Made by a program: the position numbers and the translations under genes. From the NCBI GenBank assembly GCA_030427255.1, contig JAUHWY010000018.1:2359-66358 (forward strand): DNA of 64,000 bases, in the 5' to 3' direction. The stretch's first letter is position 1, and every line of letters starts with the position of its first letter. The DNA comes from Bacteroidia bacterium (GTDB lineage Bacteria > Bacteroidota > Bacteroidia > CAIKAF01). A model generated the notes under the pieces. The model did no database searches. It saw only the letters and a program-made list of their open reading frames with translations, and was not told the DNA's origin. Positions 3,743-64,000 of this stretch are shown piece by piece.

Positions 3743-4990
3743 ATGCGCAACTTTATTTTCGCTATTCTTCTGGTTTGTATTGGCCTTAGCACCTCAGCTC
3801 AAGGGGTTTTGATTGGAGACACGGCCCAGCCGCCGCATCCTGATGCCCTGCTCGAACTGCGCGGTTCAAGAGCCCTTTTGATGCCTCGGCTCAACACCAC
3901 CCAACGAAACGCCCTGCAAAATCCGGTACCCGGCATGCAGATTTACCATATTGACGACCAATGCGTCGAAGTGTATTTTCCCAGTCAAGGCTGGAGCGAC
4001 GTGGCCTGCGACTGCCCCAATCCCCCCTCGGCCGGTTTTAGCTTTAGCCCCAGCAGCCCAAACCTGAATCAATCGGTGACTTTCACTCCCGCCTCCGGTG
4101 GACTTAATTACCAATGGACCTTTGCCTCAGGAACTCCGGCAAGTTCAAACGCATCAAGCCCTCAAGTGAGCTGGACTCAAGCCGGCAACTACAATGTGCA
4201 ATTGGTGGTTACCGACAACACCGGCTGCACCGACACCAGCAACCAAAGCGTAACTGTGAACGCCTGCAACCCACAATCCGGTAACCAGACCTTCAACTAT
4301 ACCGGCAGCATGCAAACCTTTACCGTACCTGCCTGCATTACCAATTTGCAGGTAACCTTGTATGGAGCGGAGGGCGGTCAGCGCAACAGCCAGCCCGGTG
4401 GCCAAGGCGGCATGGTGAGCGGCGATTTGGCCGTAAGCCCGGGGCAGTTGGTTTATGTATATGTGGGTGGCCGAGGTGCCAATCAGCAAACCGCCGGTTG
4501 GAACGGTGGCGGCATTGGCGATTTTCAAGCCGGTGGCGAAGCCGGCGGCGGCGGCGGTGCTTCTGACCTGCGGCTGAATGGAACCAACCTTTCCGACCGA
4601 GTAGCGGTGGCTGGCGGCGGTGGCGGTTCCGGTTGGAATCGCGCCGGAGGACAAGGCGGCGGATCTACCGGCGGCGCGGGCCAGGGTCCTTACCCCGGAC
4701 AGGGAGGAACCCAAAGCGCAGGCGGTGCCCAGGGAGTAGATTTGTGCAATAACCAAACTTCAGCCCCGGGCATATTGGGCCAAGGTGGCAATGGAGCCAG
4801 TGGCGGTTGTGGTTCCGGCGGCGGAGGCGGCGGTGGCGGTGGCTACTACGGCGGCGGCGGTGGGGGCACCAACAACCCGGACTTAGGCTCCGGCGGCGGT
4901 GGCGGCTCCAATTATACCGGTGGACTCACCAATGCCAGCGGCAGCAGTGGCGTGCGCAGCGGAGACGGACAGATTTTGATTTCTTGGTAA
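3743..4990 (+). CDS. Secreted PKD-domain protein with a long glycine-rich C-terminal region (paralog of 51531..52829)
   Basis: Signal peptide MRNFIFAILLVCIGLSTSAQG. Conserved N-terminal module (ALLELRGS..LMPRLNTTQRNAL..GMQIYHIDDQCVEVY). PKD-like segment (NYQWTFASGTP...VQLVVTDNTGCTD). The TFTVPAC...GAEGG block is followed by G-rich repeats including GGGGGGGGGYYGGGGGG. The C-terminus is GDGQILISW. The ORF listed from 3689 probably starts at the Met at 3743. Confidence 0.7.
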   Translation: MRNFIFAILLVCIGLSTSAQGVLIGDTAQPPHPDALLELRGSRALLMPRLNTTQRNALQNPVPGMQIYHIDDQCVEVYFPSQGWSDVACDCPNPPSAGFSFSPSSPNLNQSVTFTPASGGLNYQWTFASGTPASSNASSPQVSWTQAGNYNVQLVVTDNTGCTDTSNQSVTVNACNPQSGNQTFNYTGSMQTFTVPACITNLQVTLYGAEGGQRNSQPGGQGGMVSGDLAVSPGQLVYVYVGGRGANQQTAGWNGGGIGDFQAGGEAGGGGGASDLRLNGTNLSDRVAVAGGGGGSGWNRAGGQGGGSTGGAGQGPYPGQGGTQSAGGAQGVDLCNNQTSAPGILGQGGNGASGGCGSGGGGGGGGGYYGGGGGGTNNPDLGSGGGGGSNYTGGLTNASGSSGVRSGDGQILISW

Positions 4991-5180
4991 GATTTTTTGG
5001 GCGGCTCATCCCGCCCTCCCTGCAAGTCCTTGCCCCCAAGGCAGGTGCGGCTAGGTGGTACGTGGGCTCTCCCTGAACTAAGGGAAAGCCTCCGCCCACC
5101 AAGCCGCAGCCTGCCTTGGTTGCTCCGGGCTTTCCGTTCGGTCGGGGCCGCAGATCTCCTTCCAGAAGGGTAGGTTTGCC
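4991..5180. repeat. GC-rich long imperfect palindromic element (core-type repeat)
   Basis: TTTTTT-GGGCGG hairpin start. Long inverted repeat CCAAGGCAGGTGCGGCTAGGTGG ... CCACCAAGCCGCAGCCTGCCTTGG. It shares CTGCAAGTCCT and GCTCCGGGCTTTCCG...GGCCGCAGA blocks with the element at 38527. Confidence 0.6.
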
Positions 5181-5259
5181 TATTCTAAAAATGGAGTCGT
5201 GTTAACCTTAAGTGGTGCATTTCGAGATAAATTCCTATTTTTGAGAAACTTTAACCGCC

Positions 5260-5838
5260 ATGAGAATTCTGGAAATTGTACTGATTGCTTTAGGTATTTT
5301 GGCCTTTACCTTTAAGCTTACCGACATACCTGGTGGAAACGTTTTATTAAATTTTGCCCTGTCGAGCCTTGCAGTGCTGCACTTTGGACTTGGCTTTGCC
5401 TTGTTTTCGGGCGTCCGATTTCGAGAGCTGATTAAGAAGGGGAGAAAGTCAATCAAAGTAAGGCCTTATGTGGTCTTAATGCAATTTGGACTGGGAGTAT
5501 TGCATTTAGGCCTGCTTTTTACTTTAATGTTTTGGCCTAATGCGGGTTTTCAACTTAAAATGGGGTTGGTGTTATCTTTGGGTGCCTTGGTTTGGGTAGG
5601 CATTGTGTCCTTCAAGCAGTTCGACCGTACTGCCAAGCTAAACCTTGTTCGTTTGGTGTTTTTCTTAGCGTTAAGTATTCCCTTGGCTTTTACCTCCGAC
5701 GACCAATTGGTGGAAATGTATTATGGCCATGACCCGGAGTATGCAGAAATAATCAAAGCTCAAATAAAGGATTCCAACAATCCCATACATTTTGAGCGAA
5801 TGGATTCTTTGCGGAGGGCGAGAGGCATGCAGCCTTAA
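5260..5838 (+). CDS. Hypothetical multi-pass membrane protein
   Basis: 192-aa ORF with about four hydrophobic helices. No recognisable motif. Confidence 0.45.
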   Translation: MRILEIVLIALGILAFTFKLTDIPGGNVLLNFALSSLAVLHFGLGFALFSGVRFRELIKKGRKSIKVRPYVVLMQFGLGVLHLGLLFTLMFWPNAGFQLKMGLVLSLGALVWVGIVSFKQFDRTAKLNLVRLVFFLALSIPLAFTSDDQLVEMYYGHDPEYAEIIKAQIKDSNNPIHFERMDSLRRARGMQP

Positions 5839-51074: not shown

Positions 51075-51480
51075 GAATGATTAATGATTAATGATGAGTG
51101 ATGCAGTAAAGACGCAACATCTTGCGTCTCATGCGTCTCATGCGTCTCAAGCGTCTCATGCCTCCCCTGCGTCTCAAACCGCAGTAAAGACGCAACATCT
51201 TGCGCCTCATTTTTTTGGCCGCCTTATCCTGCTGTCTGCGGTAGTGCCCCGTCTCCGGCCCACGGTCTGCGGCCGCTCCGGGGTCTTCGTTCCTCAGCCT
51301 CCTCGCTTGGCCGCATACCGGGGCCGGAGCCGCGTCAGCTACCTGCTTCCATCAGGGGCGGAGGATTACTAAAACTTTAAGAGAGGGGTGAGGTAAAGAC
51401 GCAATATCTTGCGTCTCAAACCGCAGAAAAGACGCAGTATCTTGCATCTCAAAAGTCTCAACTTGTTTTCAACACCCCAC
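51075..51480. repeat. Composite repeat: heptamer array, GGTAAAGACGCAA-loop-TTGCGTCTCA hairpin units, GC-rich palindromic core, then more hairpin units
   Basis: Read off directly. TGCGTCTCA nonamer repeats. The core has inverted repeat CTCCGGCCCACGGTCTGCGGCC ... GGCCGCATACCGGGGCCGGAG. Confidence 0.8.
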
Positions 51481-51530
51481 GCCCAACCGCTCTTTTGTCC
51501 TTACCTTTATCTTTCAACTTATTTTTCTTT

Positions 51531-52829
51531 ATGAAGTTCCTTTATTTCTTGCTTAGCCTTCTTTGGTCCGCCGGACTTTATGCGCAATCCGTTCGCATTG
51601 CTTCGTCTCCCGGACAGGCCGACCCCAGCGCCGGTTTGGATGTGGATTTTAACGACCGGGGCCTGCTTTTGCCCAGGTTAACCACCACCCAACGCAATGC
51701 CATCGCCAGTCCTGCCGATGGGCTTCAAATATTCAATACCACCAGCCAATGCATGGAAGTCTTTATTTCCAACAGTTGGTTTGCAGTGGCTTGCCCTTGC
51801 CAATATTTTCCCAACGCTCAGTTTTCGTTCTCTCCTTCCAATCCGGGAGCAGGAAATGCGGTGAGTTTTAGTCCCCAGCAATCAGGACTGCAATACCAAT
51901 GGTTGTTTGCCTCCGGTACACCGGCCTCTTCTTCCCAAGCCAACCCTTCCGTTACTTGGGCCAATGCAGGTACTTATTCGGTGGTGCTTCAGGTGACCGA
52001 CAACCAAGGATGCACCGCATCCGATACCCAAAATGTGGTGGTGAGCAGCTGCCCTCCCGGTTCTCAAACCTTTACCGCCAACGGCACGCTAGCCTCGGGT
52101 AGCATTCAAAGTTTTACGGTGCCGGCCTGTGCAACCTCAGTTACGGTAGAAGCCTGGGGCGCACAAGGCGGAAGTACCTCCAACACCAACGGTGGTTTGG
52201 GCGCCTACATCAAAGGCACTTTCTCGGTGTCGGGCGGTGAAGTACTGCGCGTCTTGGTGGGTCAACAAGGCGAAGCCGGCTCTTCTGGTCACGGCAACTG
52301 CGGTGGCGGCGGTGGCGGCTCTTTTGTGACCCGCAGCAACAACCAGCCCATGGTGGTGGCCGGTGGAGGCGGCGGTGCAGGAACCGCTTCCAACATCAGC
52401 ATTCGTACGCCCGATCCGGGACAAACTGGAAACAGCGGAACGGCAGGAAAAGGAAATGGAATGCCCGGCGGCACCGGAGGAAATGGTGCTCCGGGAGTTT
52501 GTTCAAGTTGTGGCGCAACCAATGGAGCCGGTTTGCAGAGCAACAGCCAAGCCTATGGCAGCTCTTATGGAACCTCAGCCATTGCTTTTACCAATGGTGG
52601 AGGAGGGGCTACCTCCAGTAGTGGATACGACGGTGGATTTGGGGGTGGCGGAGCAGGAGCTTTTGGTGCCGGCGGCGGCGGAGGTTATTCCGGTGGAGGT
52701 TCAGGAAACTATTCCGGTACCACGGACAACAGCGGCGGCGGCGGTGGCGGCTCTTTTAATGGAGGCACCAATCCGAGCAATCAAGCCGGAGTGAGGAGTG
52801 GGAATGGGCAAGTAATCATTAGTTGGTAA
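51531..52829 (+). CDS. Secreted PKD-domain/glycine-rich protein (paralog of 3743..4990)
   Basis: Signal peptide MKFLYFLLSLLWSAGLYAQ. Same N-terminal module (GLLLPRLTTTQRNAI...GLQIFNTTSQCMEVF). PKD-like segment. SFTVPACATSVTVEAWGAQGG. G-rich tail ending GNGQVIISW. Confidence 0.7.
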   Translation: MKFLYFLLSLLWSAGLYAQSVRIASSPGQADPSAGLDVDFNDRGLLLPRLTTTQRNAIASPADGLQIFNTTSQCMEVFISNSWFAVACPCQYFPNAQFSFSPSNPGAGNAVSFSPQQSGLQYQWLFASGTPASSSQANPSVTWANAGTYSVVLQVTDNQGCTASDTQNVVVSSCPPGSQTFTANGTLASGSIQSFTVPACATSVTVEAWGAQGGSTSNTNGGLGAYIKGTFSVSGGEVLRVLVGQQGEAGSSGHGNCGGGGGGSFVTRSNNQPMVVAGGGGGAGTASNISIRTPDPGQTGNSGTAGKGNGMPGGTGGNGAPGVCSSCGATNGAGLQSNSQAYGSSYGTSAIAFTNGGGGATSSSGYDGGFGGGGAGAFGAGGGGGYSGGGSGNYSGTTDNSGGGGGGSFNGGTNPSNQAGVRSGNGQVIISW

Positions 52830-52985
52830 GACCGGCCAGGGACCGGCACGGAAAGCCCGGATGACGCCGGCGGATGCCAAGGCAGGCCTGCCGCGGTGGA
52901 GCTTTGCGGAACCCCGGCAGAACTAGCCTTGGCTCCGCTGGCGTCACCGGACTTGGAGGGAGGGCCCGGCAGGCCGCCCAATGAA
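52830..52985. repeat. GC-rich palindromic core element
   Basis: Inverted repeat GACGCCGGCGGATGCCAAGGC ... GCCTTGGCTCCGCTGGCGTC. GTGGAGCTTTGCGGAAC is shared with 38800. Confidence 0.6.
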
Positions 52986-53021
52986 ACCTACAAATCCCTA
53001 TTTGCGTATCTTTGACTTTGC

Positions 53022-55280
53022 ATGGAAAGCCACAAAATCGATGACTATTTGGCCGAAGAACAGGCCGAAATCAAAAAGCAATACCGCGCCCTGTTGCGGG
53101 CTGCCGGCAAAAATGTGGACAAGCCGGAGGACAAAAAGCGCATTCGTAGGGCCTTTGATTTGGCCGTAGATGCCCACAAAGAAATGCGCCGAAAGTCAGG
53201 AGAACCCTACATTTATCACCCCATTGCCGTGGCGCGCATTGTGTCGGAGGAGATGGGGCTGGGGGCCACCAGCATCATTTGTGCTTTGCTGCACGATACG
53301 GTAGAAGATACCGAAATTACCCTCGAAGATATTGAGCAGTTTTTTGGCCCAAAAGAGTCCAAAATCATCGATGGGCTCACCAAAATGGAAGGGGTATTTG
53401 ACCATACGCAATCCATTCAGGCCGAGAATTTTCGGAAGATTGTACTTACCCTCGCCGAGGACATTCGGGTAATTCTTATAAAAATCGCCGATCGCCTGCA
53501 CAACATGCGCACGCTCACCCACATGCGGCGCGATAAGCAACTTAAAATCGCCTCTGAAACGCTCTATTTGTATGCGCCTTTGGCCCATCGCCTTGGCCTG
53601 TACAACATCAAAACGGAGCTGGAAGACTTGAGCCTCTGCTATTTGGAACCCGAAGCTTTTGCCGATATTGAAGCCAAGCTCGAAAAAAGCAAAGAAGTAC
53701 GCGATCGCTTCGTTACCCATTTTGTGTATCCAATCCGCAAGGCCCTAAAGGCTCAAGAAATTGATTTTGAAATAAAAGGAAGAACCAAGTCCATTTATTC
53801 CATTTACAATAAGATTCGTAAGAAGGGTGTTCCTTTTGAGGAGATTTACGACATTTTTGCCATCCGAATCATTTTGGATGTGCCGCCCGAACGCGAAAAG
53901 GCTGAAATTTGGCGCACCTATTCTCTGGTCACCGATGTGTATCAACCCAAGCCGGACCGCCTGCGCGATTGGATTAGCTTTCCCCGGGCCAACGGCTACG
54001 AAAGTTTGCACGTTACGGTGATGAGTCCCACCGGCAAATGGGTGGAAGTACAAATCCGCAGCCGGCGCATGGACGACATGGCCGAAAAGGGCTATGCCGC
54101 CCATTGGAAGTACAAAGAGAATCAAGCCGAATCGGCCATTGACGAGTGGATTACCCGCGTGCGCGAAATGCTCGAAAGCCATCAGGAAGGGGAAGCCCTC
54201 GATTTTATGGACTCCTTTAAGTTGAACTTGTACAACGAGGAGATTTATACCTTTACACCTAAGGGAGAGCTGCGCACCATGCCTTCGGGTGCCACGGCCC
54301 TGGATTTTGCCTACGATATCCATTCCGAACTGGGCGACCACTGCCTTGGCGCCAAGGTCAACAACAAACTGGTGCCGCTAAGCTATGTGCTCAAAAGCGG
54401 CGACCAAATCGAAATTCTAAGCTCCAAAAAGCAAAAGCCCAAGGAAGATTGGCTCAGCTTTGTGGTAACCGGCAAAGCCCGCAGCCGCATCAAAGCTGCC
54501 CTCAAAGACGAAAAACGCCGCATTGCTGCCGAAGGAAAAGAAGTATTGGAACGCAAACTGCGCCGCCTTAAAATTCATTTTACCGAGGACGACCTGCCCA
54601 AAATGCTTAAATACTTCTCGGTGGACGATCCCTTGGAATTTTATTTTCAGGTGGGTACTGCGGCCATCAGCTCCCAACAAATTCGCGATTTTTATCGGGC
54701 AGAGAGCAACCGCAGCTGGTACCGCTACCTCACCACCAAGTTTAAGCGCAGCCAAATCAACGAAAAGGCCGAGGACAAAGACCAGCAGCTGCTCAAAAAG
54801 CTCAAGCAAGAAGAGAATCAACTACTGATTGGCGACAATTTAGAGAAGTTGGACTATAGCTTGGCCCCCTGTTGCAACCCCATTCCCGGCGACGAGGTAT
54901 TTGGCTTTGTTACCGTGGGCGACGGCATTAAAATCCACAAAACCAATTGCCCCAACGCCGTACAACTGCTCTCCAACTACGCCTATAGAGTGGTGAAAGC
55001 CAAGTGGACCAGTTCCGACGAACCTGCCTTTTTGGTGGGCATTCGCGTAACGGGCGTAGACGATGTGGGCATAGTGAATAAAATTACCCGCCTCATTTCC
55101 AATCAAATGAAGGTGAATATACGCTCTTTGAGTTTCGACTCAAATGATGGTATCTTTGAAGGCAGAATGACCCTGTTTGTGCAACATACCCTGCATTTGA
55201 ACGAACTCATCGGCAAATTGCGCGATTTGGAGGGGGTTATTGATGTGGAACGCATTACCCCTGAGCACCCAACGGCATGA
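53022..55280 (+). CDS. Bifunctional (p)ppGpp synthetase/hydrolase, RelA/SpoT family
   Basis: HD hydrolase motif (ALLHDTVEDT). Synthetase domain. TGS and C-terminal ACT regions. Confidence 0.9.
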   Translation: MESHKIDDYLAEEQAEIKKQYRALLRAAGKNVDKPEDKKRIRRAFDLAVDAHKEMRRKSGEPYIYHPIAVARIVSEEMGLGATSIICALLHDTVEDTEITLEDIEQFFGPKESKIIDGLTKMEGVFDHTQSIQAENFRKIVLTLAEDIRVILIKIADRLHNMRTLTHMRRDKQLKIASETLYLYAPLAHRLGLYNIKTELEDLSLCYLEPEAFADIEAKLEKSKEVRDRFVTHFVYPIRKALKAQEIDFEIKGRTKSIYSIYNKIRKKGVPFEEIYDIFAIRIILDVPPEREKAEIWRTYSLVTDVYQPKPDRLRDWISFPRANGYESLHVTVMSPTGKWVEVQIRSRRMDDMAEKGYAAHWKYKENQAESAIDEWITRVREMLESHQEGEALDFMDSFKLNLYNEEIYTFTPKGELRTMPSGATALDFAYDIHSELGDHCLGAKVNNKLVPLSYVLKSGDQIEILSSKKQKPKEDWLSFVVTGKARSRIKAALKDEKRRIAAEGKEVLERKLRRLKIHFTEDDLPKMLKYFSVDDPLEFYFQVGTAAISSQQIRDFYRAESNRSWYRYLTTKFKRSQINEKAEDKDQQLLKKLKQEENQLLIGDNLEKLDYSLAPCCNPIPGDEVFGFVTVGDGIKIHKTNCPNAVQLLSNYAYRVVKAKWTSSDEPAFLVGIRVTGVDDVGIVNKITRLISNQMKVNIRSLSFDSNDGIFEGRMTLFVQHTLHLNELIGKLRDLEGVIDVERITPEHPTA

Positions 55281-55741
55281 ATCAGAACCAGATGGAAGAA
55301 GTGCGCGACATTTTTAGTCGTTATTTGGAGGCCAATGGCCACCGCAAAACCCCGGAACGTTTTGCCATCCTCGAAGAAATTTACAGCCGCAACCACCATT
55401 TTGACGTTGAGGAGCTCTTTAAATCCATGAAAGAGCGCAACTATAGGGTGAGCCGGGCCACCGTGTACAATACCTTGGACCTTTTGCTCAATTGCCATTT
55501 GGTGCGCAAACACCAGTTCACCGGCAATTTGGCCCAATACGAAAAAAGCCACGGCTACAGCCAGCACGACCACCTCATTTGCAACCAATGCCACAAGGTT
55601 ACCGAGTTTTGTGATCCGCGCCTACACCACATCCAAACCGGCGTGGGCGATTTGCTCGGTTTTCAAATCAAACATCATTCCTTTATTCTGTACGGGGATT
55701 GCAACCAATCCGACTGCCCGGATCGACCGGATGCGCCGTAA
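55277..55741 (+). CDS. fur: Fur family transcriptional regulator
   Basis: Winged-helix N-terminus. HHDHLIC...C and C-terminal Cys/His metal-site motifs. Confidence 0.8.
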   Translation: MNQNQMEEVRDIFSRYLEANGHRKTPERFAILEEIYSRNHHFDVEELFKSMKERNYRVSRATVYNTLDLLLNCHLVRKHQFTGNLAQYEKSHGYSQHDHLICNQCHKVTEFCDPRLHHIQTGVGDLLGFQIKHHSFILYGDCNQSDCPDRPDAP

Positions 55742-55805
55742 CCACGGGATATGTTGCGTCTCTGCATGCCAATTATTCCGCGCTGAAGCCTTTGCGCCTC
55801 TAAGA

Positions 55806-55953
55806 CATCGGCATCCGCGCCTGCGCCGTCCAATCCAGCGACCCCTTGGCCCCGCTCCGATATTTCATTAGCCCCGCCATGGCAATCATGGCCGCATTGT
55901 CGGTGCAATAAGCCAATTTGGGGATGTGCAATTCCCAGCCTTTTTGGGTGCAG
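55806..55953. repeat. 147-bp direct repeat copy A: displaced duplicate of the tsaD 3-prime end (putative attL)
   Basis: 143/147 identity with 57112-57262. Read on the minus strand it encodes a TsaD-like C-terminus ending ...QARMPMS* with no upstream coding continuation. Confidence 0.75.
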
Positions 55954-56107
55954 GAATTTTTTAGAAATCTGTATTCAACATGGGTAGCGGTAATTTTATA
56001 ATGTAGAAAACTCTTAGAGAAAGCACAAATGCTATTTAAAACTATAGTTTTGAAACAATTTTAATTTTTTTTCGTATAACCTTTTGTTTTATAAAAAATA
56101 TTAGCGA

Positions 56108-57067
56108 ATGAGAACTGTAAAAGATTACATGTTAAATCCAGAATTATTTGATAATGATAATTTTAATGAAATCGAGGCGTACCATTTTTTCTCAAAAACC
56201 TTAAATAGAGTAAGGCTACCTATTATAAATGTTACTGTAGCAAATAATTTTATTGATAGGCTTAGAAGGTTAGAAGGTGATAAACTTCATACTAGTTTGG
56301 CAGACTATCTTCCGGTGTCTTCAACAAATTATGAGGTTTTAGAAAAAATTTCTGGAGGTAGAGCTAACTTGCCCAGACAATCCGTTTTTTATGGTAGTTT
56401 AAGAACAGAGGAAAATCCTTACAGCCGTATTACTGCTTTAACAGAGGTTTCTGCGAATCATAGGCGTCCAGCAATTAATAAAGTGCAGTTAAAAGACTTA
56501 ACAAGATTTCAAGAAAATGAAGAGAGTAGTAACTTAAAGGATTTTTTTTATTCTTTTTCACGGTGGGAAATTAGGAAGCCATTAGAGCTTGCAGTTGTAA
56601 TGCCTTTTGGGAGTTATGCAAATTCAATGAATAGGCAAATAATGGAGCAGTGTCAGCAAAAATTTAATTCACTTTCCACAAGAGATAAAGAGTTAATAAG
56701 ACTTCTTTCTGACTCATTCTTAAATAATAAAAGTACTCGTTGGAAGTACTATTTTTCTGCATATTACGCAAACTGTTTATATAGGGAATTTGATGGAATT
56801 CTTTACCCGAGTATGCAATCAAACCAAGAAGGGCAAAATATTGTTTTAAGGAGTGATGTAGTTCTAAATAAGTTAAGCTTAGATAAAATAGCTCTTTTAG
56901 AAGAAAGAGTTATAAATGACAATAAAAGCCCTCACACAGTGGTAGATATAATTGGTGTTGGAGATTTTTCGAATGATGATATTTTTTTCTATACATTAAA
57001 GAATGGAGTAATTAGTTCCACAAGAAAATGTTATTGTAAAGACCAATTGAAACAAATGGCGAAATAG
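56108..57067 (+). CDS. Orphan extended RES-domain-like protein on an AT-rich islet (putative NAD+-targeting toxin or defence effector)
   Basis: Arg motif SGGRANLP (GGRxN-like). VFYGSL...ALTEV (Y-x-S...A-L-E). DGILYPSMQSNQEGQNIVL (Ser motif plus N-[IL]-V-L). GC is about 30% against a 50% background. Confidence 0.5.
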   Translation: MRTVKDYMLNPELFDNDNFNEIEAYHFFSKTLNRVRLPIINVTVANNFIDRLRRLEGDKLHTSLADYLPVSSTNYEVLEKISGGRANLPRQSVFYGSLRTEENPYSRITALTEVSANHRRPAINKVQLKDLTRFQENEESSNLKDFFYSFSRWEIRKPLELAVVMPFGSYANSMNRQIMEQCQQKFNSLSTRDKELIRLLSDSFLNNKSTRWKYYFSAYYANCLYREFDGILYPSMQSNQEGQNIVLRSDVVLNKLSLDKIALLEERVINDNKSPHTVVDIIGVGDFSNDDIFFYTLKNGVISSTRKCYCKDQLKQMAK

Positions 57068-57087
57068 GCGAGTAGAAATAGTTGATT

Positions 57088-58125
57088 TTAAGAAACCTTA
57101 TTGGGGTGTATCATCGGCATCCGCGCCTGCGCCGTCCAATCCAGCGACCCCTTAGCCCCGCTCCGATATTTCATTAGCCCCGCCATGGCAATCATAGCCG
57201 CATTGTCGGTGCAATAAGCCAATTTGGGGATGTGCAATTCCCAGCCTTTTTCGGTGCAAGCCTCCAGCAAAAAGCCCCGAAGCCCTTTATTGGCCGATAC
57301 CCCGCCTGCCAGCACCACCCGATGCACGCCCGTGGCCTCAACCGCCTCTTGCAGTCCCTTCCACAAAGTGGCAATAATCGCATCCTGATAATCGCGCGCC
57401 AAATCGGCCAAAGCTTGTCCCTCAGGAACCGCTTCCTGCTTTTGCAAGTACTGATACAAACTGGTTTTTAGTCCCGAAAAACTAAAATGCAGCGGTCCGG
57501 CCTTAGGCACAGGGAAGCGATGATTTCCGGGGCGACCTTGCGCGGCCAAGCGATCGATTTCCGGTCCTCCGGGATAGGGCAGCCCCAGCAATTTGGCGGC
57601 CTTGTCAAAGGCTTCGCCGGCGGCGTCGTCCAGGGTTTGACCGAGCAGTTCCAGACGGGTAGGGGAGTGCACCAGCACCAATTGCGTATGCCCCCCCGAC
57701 ACCGTAAGGCTCAGAAAAGGAAAATCGGGAGGATTTTTGCCGCTGATTTCCGCATCCTCAATAAAATGCGCCAGCACATGCGCTTCCATGTGGTGCACAT
57801 CAATAAGCGGAAGATTCAGCGCCAAGCTAAGTCCCTTGGCAAAGGAGCTGCCCACCAGCAGCGAACCCAGCAAACCGGGACCACGGGTGCAGGCAATCAG
57901 TTCCAAATCCTCCAGACGGCATTGCGCTTGCGCCAGGGCCTGATGCACCACCGGCAGAATGTGGCTCATATGGGCACGGGAGGCCAATTCGGGCACCACG
58001 CCACCGTATTGTCGGTGCACCTCCTGATTGGCGGTGACGTTGGCCAGAACGCGCGAGCCACTAAGCACGGCCGCGGAAGTATCGTCGCAGGAGCTTTCGA
58101 TGCCAAGAATAAGCGGTGGGCGCAT
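57088..58125 (-). CDS. tsaD: tRNA N6-adenosine threonylcarbamoyltransferase TsaD
   Basis: ILGIESSCDDTSAAV N-terminus. Conserved His pair and Kae1/TsaD fold length. The last roughly 150 bp are the copy B repeat, and the final 7 codons lie on the islet side. Confidence 0.85.
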   Translation of the reverse strand: MRPPLILGIESSCDDTSAAVLSGSRVLANVTANQEVHRQYGGVVPELASRAHMSHILPVVHQALAQAQCRLEDLELIACTRGPGLLGSLLVGSSFAKGLSLALNLPLIDVHHMEAHVLAHFIEDAEISGKNPPDFPFLSLTVSGGHTQLVLVHSPTRLELLGQTLDDAAGEAFDKAAKLLGLPYPGGPEIDRLAAQGRPGNHRFPVPKAGPLHFSFSGLKTSLYQYLQKQEAVPEGQALADLARDYQDAIIATLWKGLQEAVEATGVHRVVLAGGVSANKGLRGFLLEACTEKGWELHIPKLAYCTDNAAMIAMAGLMKYRSGAKGSLDWTAQARMPMIHPNKVS

Positions 58126-58146: not shown

Positions 58147-58640
58147 GGAATGATGAATGATGGATGATGAATGATGAGTGATGAATGATGAGGTAAAGAC
58201 GCAACATCTTGCGTCTCATGCGTCTCATGCGTCTCCACCCCCCAGTAACGACGCAACATCTTACGTCTTATGCGTCTCATGCGTCCCAAACGGCGCTTCT
58301 TGGGCCTTCCTTCCATAGGAAACCTAAGTTCCATATCCGCCCCTTTTCATCGGTCAGGCCCCGCCCCAAGCAAGCCGATCTAGGGCTCCGGTGGTTCCGC
58401 AAAGCTACACCTCCTCGCCCAAGTTCGGCTAGCCTGGGTCAGGGCGGCTTACAGCCCTGACCCTAGCGTCAGGGGCCCTCTGTGGGGGGCGGGAGGCGCA
58501 ACAAAAGGGCGTAGTGACGCATTGCCATGCGTCTACAGCAAGAGGGTAGCGACGCAAAATGTTGCATAATGGTGTTGTGGTTTATGGAGACGCAAAGTAT
58601 TGCGTCTTTACATCATTCATCATTAACCATTCATGATTAA
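58147..58640. mobile_element. MITE-like composite element with inverted termini (heptamer array plus GACGCAA hairpin units at both ends, in opposite orientation, flanking a GC-rich palindromic core)
   Basis: Left end 58147-58285 is GAATGATG array then GGTAAAGACGCAACATCTTGCGTCTCA. Right end 58587-58640 is GAGACGCAAAGTATTGCGTCTTTACATCATTCATCATT, the reverse complement of the same module. The core 58286-58560 contains GCTCCGGTGGTTCCGCAAAGCT, the inverted form of a block shared with other cores. Confidence 0.6.
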
Positions 58641-63448: not shown

Positions 63449-63840
63449 GGTGAATGATGAATGGTGAATGATGAATGGTGAATGATGAATGATGAATGGT
63501 GAATGATGAATGGTGAATGATGAATGGTGAATGGTGAATGATGAATGGTGAATGATGAATGGTGAATGATGAATGGTGAATGATGAATGGTGAATGATGA
63601 ATGGTGAATGATGAATGATGAATGGTGAATGATGAATGATGAATGATGAATGATTAGGGGTGAGGTAAAGACGCAACATCTTGCGTCTCATTAGGGGTGA
63701 GGTAAAGACGGGGTGCCTCGCGTCTCATTAGGGGTGAGGTAATGACGGGATGCCTCGCGTCTCTTAATGATGAATGGTGTATGGTGAATGATGAATGATT
63801 AGGGATGAGGTAAATACGGGATGCCTCCCGTCTCTTAATG
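63449..63840. repeat. (GAATGATGAATGGT)n 14-bp array of about 15 copies, then mixed GACGCAA-type and GACGGGA-type hairpin units each preceded by TTAGGGGTGAGG
   Basis: Starts on the base after the tamB stop. Both hairpin families occur in one array. Confidence 0.85.
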
Positions 63841-64000
63841 ATGAATGGACTCTGCGTGCCCTTACACCGCGACAGCGGTTTCACGCAAAGTCGCCAAGCC
63901 GCAAAGGGGCGTTTGACGGCGCTATCTATTTCACAAATAGTTCCTTCCGCGCTAAAGCCTTTGCGCCTTCGCGTTTCTGCATGCCAATGCTTCCGCGCTA
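63841..64000. repeat. GC-rich core element, truncated by the window end
   Basis: Shares TTCCGCGCTAAAGCCTTTGCGCC and TCTGCATGCCAAT blocks with 55758-55800. Confidence 0.5.

Follow-up and report, generated by a model that had tools for sequence, protein, structure and literature searches.

A 319-amino-acid (aa) RES-domain protein, encoded with no partner gene beside it, is the sole cargo of a 1,159-bp, low-GC islet inserted at the 3′ end of tsaD in the 64-kb window (the whole stretch of DNA analysed here). Our leading reading, to which we assign a probability of roughly 55%, is that this protein is a stand-alone, auto-inhibited RES defence enzyme that degrades NAD+ and that was acquired on the one-gene islet; we infer its enzymatic activity, trigger and auto-inhibition, together with the mechanism of insertion. 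The original prediction of an orphan RES protein as the only cargo of the islet is backed by a profile match, the fold, the catalytic residues and the missing partner. The features on which the analysis rests are as follows.

55277..55741, plus strand: Fur-family regulator (Pfam FUR and NCBIfam Fur-family matches), the native left neighbour, outside the islet
55806..55952, minus strand: direct repeat copy A, the displaced original tsaD 3′ end (49 codons)
55953–57111: islet, the low-GC stretch between the repeats (1,159 bp; GC 0.30, compared with about 0.5 for the region)
55953..56107, plus strand: AT-rich leader (155 bp; GC about 0.27–0.29), with candidate promoter elements and ORFs of at most 27 aa
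56108..57067, plus strand: RES gene ('long RES', 319 aa, stand-alone), with an ATG start and predicted catalytic residues R51, R53, R85, Y95, E113 and S235
57068..57111: islet trailer (44 bp), which gives tsaD (minus strand) a new 3′ end
57088..58125, minus strand: tsaD, tRNA t6A37 transferase subunit and insertion target (NCBIfam TIGR03723, 401.5 bits, cut-off 296.1)
57112..57258, minus strand: direct repeat copy B, inside the intact tsaD

A one-gene insertion with duplication of the tsaD 3′ end

The islet described in the original prediction is borne out by base composition, with GC content at 0.27–0.36 across about 55900–57100 and at 0.47–0.58 in the flanks, and by an independent read-level assembly: a Logan unitig (ERR3428543) corresponds to window positions 55916–57141, spans both junctions and ends where the repeated k-mers start. 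The contig with the RES islet was seen in two samples, and fur-bearing unitigs from two samples end at the same repeat boundary. Because the independent unitig spans both junctions and the fur unitigs stop at the repeat boundary, the islet is no assembly artefact, and an assembly chimera is ruled out on the same grounds.

The two copies of the 147-nt direct repeat are 98% identical (3 mismatches). Copy A runs into the native last codon and stop codon of tsaD at 55800–55805 (...ARMPMS*), and the trailer adds six sense codons and a new stop (57088–57090) to the gene, changing its end from ...PM-S* to ...PM-IHPNKVS*. TsaD here is 345 aa long and ends in ARMPMIHPNKVS; relatives at least 90% identical to it have 339 aa and end in ARMPMS. 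The corresponding empty site was found on a 53.8-kb contig of about 96% nucleotide identity (L156), which carries TamB–TsaD–Fur–RelA/SpoT with no islet and holds the 147-nt stretch as a single copy (L156rc 4007–4153); in the window, likewise, relA/spoT lies on the Fur side and a 1,586-aa TamB-like gene lies to the right of tsaD. Both window copies carry their own lineage's substitutions relative to the empty-site contig, and they differ from each other at 3 of the 147 sites: the pseudogene copy A has two private changes, and copy B has one, which is synonymous. Because both copies carry host-lineage single-nucleotide differences, the repeat is a duplicated host target and was not brought in by the element as an att site of distant origin. 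The insertion, 1,159 bp long, added a single gene and left 147 bp of the host tsaD 3′ end duplicated. On the bases of GC content (0.30 versus about 0.5) and of the empty site in the relative, we regard the acquisition as recent and horizontal, the RES gene probably having come from a low-GC donor into the last tsaD codons.

No recombinase was found in or next to the islet, and no attC-like hairpin in its leader or trailer, only 44 nt following the ORF; one homologue (L092) is bracketed by attC-like hairpin repeats of about 130 nt. An integron gene cassette was rejected on the lack of an attC hairpin at the islet ends, and a site-specific integrative element on the lack of a recombinase gene and of a distinct element-borne att copy. 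CIMEs (cis-mobilisable elements) are integrase-less islands between att-like direct repeats. The islet resembles CIMEs and integron cassettes in being a short, cargo-only insert that direct repeats enclose where a conserved gene ends (3′), with the target kept functional, but differs from them in that its repeat is a target duplication and in that it has neither an attC-like hairpin nor a recombinase. Possible routes of insertion are a Campbell-type single crossover of a circle that carried the gene and a tsaD fragment, and the repair of a widely staggered break.

We also asked how widely such arrangements occur. A TsaD search of genome contigs (80 loci, with TsaD at most 57% identical) returned no empty site, no tsaD-3′ duplication and no RES homologue nearby. 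At loci of other family members (L089, L103, L108, L122 and L153), an intact gene or terminator is followed by the RES gene and then by a duplicated 3′ remnant. Flanking direct repeats accompany 4 of 32 RES genes, and control genes taken from these loci have them in 4 of 100 cases; because this controlled count gives a Fisher p of about 0.1, the pattern is a lead and not a finding, and flanking repeats were set aside as a family-wide signature, the difference from control genes not being significant. That long RES genes might travel generally as recombinase-less one-gene cassettes, which would land at the 3′ ends of genes and duplicate long stretches of the target, is very doubtful.

The RES domain, its predicted active site and its family

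The 319-aa ORF at 56108–57067 is present as originally described, with an ATG start on the plus strand, and the proposed profile check gave a match to Pfam RES (PF08808) at 25.9 bits, above the gathering score of 23.2 (E = 1.1e-5). The three RES motifs read from the sequence were all found in order and coincide with conserved positions of a real family, represented here by an alignment of 59 sequences: the Arg motif GGRAN (R85, nt 56360–62), the Glu motif YSRITALTEV (E113, nt 56444–46) and the Ser motif GILYPS...NIVL (S235, nt 56810–12; N244). In that alignment R85, Y95, E113, W153 and Y214 are invariant and R51, P234, S235 and N244 nearly so; in a closer sub-alignment R51, R53, R85, Y95, E113 and S235 are all invariant. 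Structure prediction, also proposed at the outset, yielded a RES/ADP-ribosyltransferase-like fold, as established by fold comparison of the model. From the single sequence AlphaFold reached a pLDDT of 33, and the confident AF2 model (pLDDT 82.8, pTM 0.83) needed the family alignment. Its sole disordered part is a loop of about 20 residues (122–141; pLDDT below 50), which is private to this protein. The protein is predicted to be a catalytically competent RES-domain enzyme.

The closest solved structures by fold are all toxins of toxin–antitoxin (TA) systems with Xre/DUF2384 antitoxins, with the NAD-degrading NatT and MbcT scoring above ParT. Neither the protein nor the family profile matched any PDB sequence, and only fold comparison worked; the long RES family is therefore remote from the characterised toxins. 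Viral structures in BFVD gave weak matches only (TM below 0.33), and PADLOC 2.0, PHROGs and NCBIfam gave no meaningful match for the RES protein.

Exhaustive scanning of 1.84 billion protein representatives with HMMER recovered 162 relatives at E ≤1e-3, most of them 280–320 aa long and aligned over residues of about 15–300, with none above 33–35% identity; the family comprises at least 162 clusters at 50% identity, every one of them less than 35% identical to the 319-aa protein. A word-indexed search of 5.8 billion proteins found only the query itself with the single sequence and seven proteins with the family profile. With a degenerate DNA pattern that stands for GRANxPxQxxFYG, 62 loci were drawn from metagenomes, and 58 of them code for a member of the family, typically of 285–330 aa. 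PF08808 matches 31 of the 59 aligned members. The shared architecture consists of an N-terminal helical segment (about 1–40), a helical insert (about 165–228) and a C-terminal beta-hairpin module (about 256–300) on the RES fold. As judged by sequence, these long RES proteins are a separate, uncharacterised family of compact (about 300 aa) proteins without the aRES N-terminal domain PF18870.

This architecture changes how the size of the protein is to be read. The original prediction had called it 'enlarged', which holds relative to the RES toxins of TA systems (144–183 aa) but is normal for a family of about 300 aa, and because this is the normal architecture of a separate family, 319 aa is unremarkable. 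There are indeed extra residues at the N terminus, but only about 40 lie outside the RES fold and not the predicted 85 or so, residues 43–84 aligning within the aRES RES core, to the segment bearing two further arginines (R182/R184 in aRES, R51/R53 here). The insert of about 50 residues between the Glu and Ser motifs was likewise described correctly, but is common to the whole family (one member, P0003, spans 130 HMM positions with 180 residues), and only the loop at 122–141 is this protein's own.

The surroundings of family members are heterogeneous. No upstream or downstream partner family recurs in the 58 metagenomic loci, and gene orientation relative to neighbours varies freely. Neighbours that could be identified include GmrSD-type nucleases, AbiJ, DUF4917/SIR2-like proteins, a UvrD-like helicase, an HSP90-like ATPase (HATPase_c_3), a Bacteroidota-type tyrosine integrase and, in four loci, a small serine resolvase convergent with the RES gene and overlapping it by 4 nt; in loci obtained by exact look-up, family members adjoin TIR, SIR2_2, Patatin and HipA_C genes. 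Members are mostly stand-alone genes near defence or mobile-element genes. An HTH_3 protein lies directly upstream in only 2 of about 45 loci (L130 and L103), and another member (P0152) has a tightly coupled 120-aa ORF upstream, in three contigs. PADLOC 2.0 matched none of the 59 family members, and a scan of 2.9 million viral contigs for the family motif found none. The neighbour pattern together with the absence from these viral contigs is the signature of a cellular gene tied to defence and mobile elements.

Partner search and comparison with known RES systems

RES toxins of type II RES–Xre (DUF2384) systems sit immediately downstream of an Xre-type antitoxin. At the islet, the adjacent and co-transcribed Xre/DUF2384 antitoxin gene that characterises these systems (MbcTA, ParST and NatRT) is missing: the RES ORF is the only islet ORF, the 155-bp leader and 44-bp trailer holding only ORFs of up to 27 aa that overlap the repeat, which agrees with the earlier statement that no partner lies in the leader or downstream. 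A small antitoxin ORF that this first reading might have missed upstream was searched for in the leader, and none was found. The suggested search for Xre/DUF2384 homologues was carried out on the window by comparing its non-overlapping small ORFs (≤300 aa; nine of ten batches) with Pfam, and no HTH_3, Xre-like or DUF2384 protein was among them, and over those 64 kb the orphan status stands. A fused Xre/DUF2384 module in the extra parts of the protein, another option originally raised, was not borne out, HMMs detecting none there. The islet also gave no match to an Rfam family, and neither leader nor trailer is more stably folded than shuffled sequences (z = +0.7 to +1.4; leader +1.1, +1.4), on which grounds an RNA antitoxin or riboswitch was set aside. 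The leader does contain a sigma-70-like TCAACA-16-TATAAT at 55975–56002 and a Bacteroidota-type −7 box (TAGTTTTG) at 56045–56052, 55 nt ahead of the ATG, each a consensus match only.

The structurally characterised toxins MbcT, ParT and Res (PDB 6fkg, 6d0h, 6gw6/9r35 and 8gug) resemble the 319-aa protein in their RES fold and in the R/Y/E/S set of catalytic residues, but their matched chains are 144–183 aa long, whereas the 319-aa protein has additional residues at its termini, the shared insert of about 50 residues and no antitoxin gene. NatT of the Pseudomonas aeruginosa NatR–NatT system (PDB 8qnl) is a core-genome toxin neutralised by the adjacent NatR (EMBO J 2024, PMC11535050). The 319-aa protein, in contrast, is 11% identical to NatT, has no partner and lies on a foreign islet.

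A closer functional parallel comes from aRES, RES proteins that stand alone in defence islands, that defend Escherichia coli against phages through the conversion of NAD+ into nicotinamide plus ADP-ribose-1′′-phosphate (ADPR-1′′-phosphate), and that are defined by a length of 300–600 aa and by RES plus PF18870 (HEPN/RES-NTD1; HHsearch probability above 80%) (Osterman et al., bioRxiv 2026, 10.64898/2026.01.28.702374). Six residues of the E. coli UC5 protein (R182, R184, R215, Y225, E236 and S334) were mutated to alanine in that work, and point mutations at predicted active-site residues abolished defence (10.64898/2026.01.28.702374). Using the E. coli UC5 sequence (Table S4 of 10.64898/2026.01.28.702374) as reference, hhalign aligned our family profile over residues 43–248 to aRES 173–353 (87% probability, E = 4e-6), and all six mutated positions have the same residue in the 319-aa protein (R51, R53, R85, Y95, E113 and S235, respectively). 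The protein is further like aRES in having no operonic partner, in a length within the 300–600-aa range, in a RES core that aligns and in having relatives among defence genes.

There are also differences. About 170 residues precede the RES core in aRES and about 40 in the 319-aa protein, and PF18870 is absent: hmmscan found none in the 319-aa protein (E up to 10), in the 59 family members (E up to 0.01) or in 8 further homologues (E up to 1), and the same scan detected it in two aRES control proteins at residues 29–147. The stretch of about 40 residues ahead of the core is too short to hold PF18870, with its 131 positions. The 319-aa protein carries a C-terminal beta module that may set it apart from aRES, and its identity to aRES is at the profile level only. 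At this locus the siting differs as well, aRES genes lying in defence islands and this gene lying alone between fur and tsaD with relA/spoT and tamB nearby; many long RES homologues adjoin GmrSD, AbiJ, DUF4917, UvrD, TIR or SIR2 genes, but the window gene does not. As far as sequence can tell, the protein would work in the manner of aRES, yet it lacks the feature that defines aRES membership, and because PF18870 and an antitoxin are both absent we file it as a stand-alone RES defence variant, neither an aRES member nor a TA toxin. That aRES are known removes most of the surprise of a RES protein without an antitoxin.

Several observations were counted against a defence role: the gene is outside a defence island and without PADLOC 2.0 or PHROGs matches, PF18870 is absent, relatives above 35% identity are lacking, the disordered loop is private and antisense read-through could silence the gene.

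Proposed role and alternative explanations

For the RES enzyme we propose the following course of events. It would be made in an auto-inhibited form and work alone; a trigger, most likely phage infection, would release it; and it would then destroy NAD+, probably by phosphorolysis to nicotinamide and ADP-ribose-1′′-phosphate as in MbcT and aRES, with the loss of NAD+ arresting the infected cell. Candidates for sensing and auto-inhibition are the N-terminal helices (about 1–40), the helical insert (about 165–228) and the C-terminal beta-hairpin (about 256–300), and PF18870 is presumed to have a regulatory part in aRES. Among the three options of the original prediction, an abortive-infection-type effector is the best supported, by the aRES precedent, the six matching residues and the defence-gene neighbours of homologues. 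More tentatively, long RES might be a single-protein immune sensor–effector in which the helical insert and/or the beta module serves as an intramolecular antitoxin that a phage cue would free. If true, this would make it a single-chain counterpart both of the two-protein RES–Xre systems and of the aRES N-terminal domain.

An orphan type II toxin, with its antitoxin acting in trans or lost (and, if lost, harmless through low expression or partial inactivation), is unlikely but the foremost of the other explanations. That the closest solved structures are all toxins with Xre/DUF2384 antitoxins is consistent with it, as are the small HTH_3 (Xre-family) proteins directly upstream in 2 of about 45 loci and the coupled 120-aa ORF upstream of one family member, and our antitoxin search spans 64 kb of the genome. 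Within those 64 kb, however, the small ORFs scanned include no Xre, HTH or DUF2384 protein, a partner gene would not fit in the islet and no partner family recurs beside the 58 metagenomic loci. The empty site, moreover, indicates that the gene arrived alone, and a single active toxin would be counter-selected on arrival, whereas aRES provides a precedent for RES proteins that stand alone.

The chemistry of the proposed defence enzyme could also differ. The RES fold also supports protein ADP-ribosylation, as in ParT, and NAD+ phosphorolysis is the likelier chemistry of the two. A ParT-like ADP-ribosyltransferase, which would act on one particular protein or nucleic acid of the cell or the phage and would not deplete NAD+, would be compatible with a defence role, but we consider it quite improbable, given that the R-R...R-Y-E-S set matches that of aRES, whose product is ADPR-1′′-phosphate, and that the NAD-degrading toxins outscore ParT in the fold comparison.

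Control by RNA has little probability in our view, whether by a small RNA encoded in cis or by antisense transcripts that would read through from the constitutively expressed, convergent tsaD and serve as a de facto antitoxin or silencer. The geometry would allow it: the tsaD and RES stops are 20 nt apart, and no terminator-like site was found on the minus strand in 55700–57300, so tsaD transcription probably continues antisense across the entire RES gene as far as the native terminator region past copy A. Neither an Rfam family nor thermodynamically unusual structure was found in the leader or trailer, however, and because orientation to neighbours varies freely among loci, antisense transcription cannot be the family's general means of control.

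There is a similarly small chance that the gene is an inert passenger or decaying remnant, unexpressed or inactive, that persists because the insertion is recent. The lack of any relative above 35% identity among the 1.84 billion representatives, the private loop at 122–141 and the unameliorated GC content fit such a gene, but 319 codons of AT-rich DNA are open without interruption, every residue that is invariant in the family is kept, the model is confident and the contig occurs in two samples, with the second-sample fur unitig breaking at the same boundary. The repeat copies have already accumulated 3 differences over 147 positions, so the reading frame has persisted for a while.

If the stand-alone RES enzyme proposed here is active, one-gene NAD+ depletion by RES proteins would not be bound to the aRES domain architecture, and defence of this kind would extend to a second, Bacteroidota-rich family that is missed by PADLOC 2.0. 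The filled site and the empty site of the relative make a clean natural before-and-after pair, in which the gene for a potentially lethal enzyme has landed alone in the 3′ end of an essential gene that was itself preserved, and the islet offers a tractable case for how a RES toxin stays silent without an antitoxin.

Layouts shared with other loci and consequences for tsaD

At two other loci carrying homologues of the RES protein, the order is the same as that of the tsaD case in the window: a gene, then the RES gene, then a remnant of the first gene's 3′ end. In L153, the homologue has on one side an intact tyrosine integrase of the Bacteroidota type and on the other a remnant of that integrase's 3′ end carrying an internal deletion. 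The L089 homologue is flanked by a small open reading frame (ORF) and a duplicate of the last 15 codons of that ORF.

Repeats flanking RES homologues
L153, 1136–1230: first repeat
L153, 2741–2835: second repeat
L089, 96–141: first repeat
L089, 1221–1266: second repeat

In the window, the insertion changed the TsaD C terminus from ...PMS to ...PMIHPNKVS (339 to 345 amino acids; 57068–57111) and cut tsaD off from its native downstream region; tsaD transcripts therefore probably pass antisense across the RES gene.

Variation and repeats around fur and tsaD

Relative to the window, the fur–tsaD spacer of L156, the relative with an empty site, holds approximately 160 additional nucleotides (3797–3956 of its reverse complement, against window position ~55785), which are similar to repeats at 63847–64000 of the window. 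This extra sequence implies that the spacer is a site of variation in its own right, quite apart from the RES islet (the low-GC insertion).

The window also contains a REP-like palindrome, GACGCAACATCTTGCGTC, with 10 matches across both strands at six loci (0 expected). The copies are intergenic, and upstream of tsaD the palindrome forms part of longer tandem units (58148–58285).

Loci of the palindrome
51111–51128
51189–51206
51398–51415
58198–58215
58250–58267
63670–63687

A degenerate copy lies directly past the fur stop codon (55738–55762). Separately, GC content reaches 0.57–0.61 in two short stretches of the window (4001–5500 and 51500–53000), far higher than the usual ~0.41–0.54.

Recurrent neighbours and cassette-like arrays

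Among RES homologues, four loci (L101, L104, L119 and L142) share a downstream serine resolvase (Resolvase plus HTH_7 domains; 191–222 amino acids; 74–99% mutual identity), in every case convergent with the RES-family gene and overlapping its 3′ end by 4 nt. On three other contigs (L082, L083 and L084), a conserved 120-amino-acid lipoprotein-like ORF with a weak BamE match ends 2 nt before the gene for the family member P0152, and is possibly a subgroup-specific partner of it.

Repeats punctuate two further loci.

L092, 2188–2327, 4375–4517 and 6034–6175: three GC-rich repeats, ~140 nt (contig GC 30%)
L114, 1131–1486, 1988–2349, 3112–3441 and 5905–6269: four copies of a ~350-nt repeat, 80–85% identical

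The L092 repeats, which matched neither Rfam nor tRNA, flank a two-gene unit (a RES-family gene, then a 189-amino-acid ORF 6 nt downstream). Their fold is a long, imperfect hairpin whose ends are conserved (...AACAAGGGGTGTAACC... / ...CACACCCCCAGCCGTT...), with compensatory changes at 10 pairs; they resemble integron attC sites. The L114 copies sit between single minus-strand genes, including a RES homologue and a DUF4917/SIR2-like gene, a layout like that of a cassette array.
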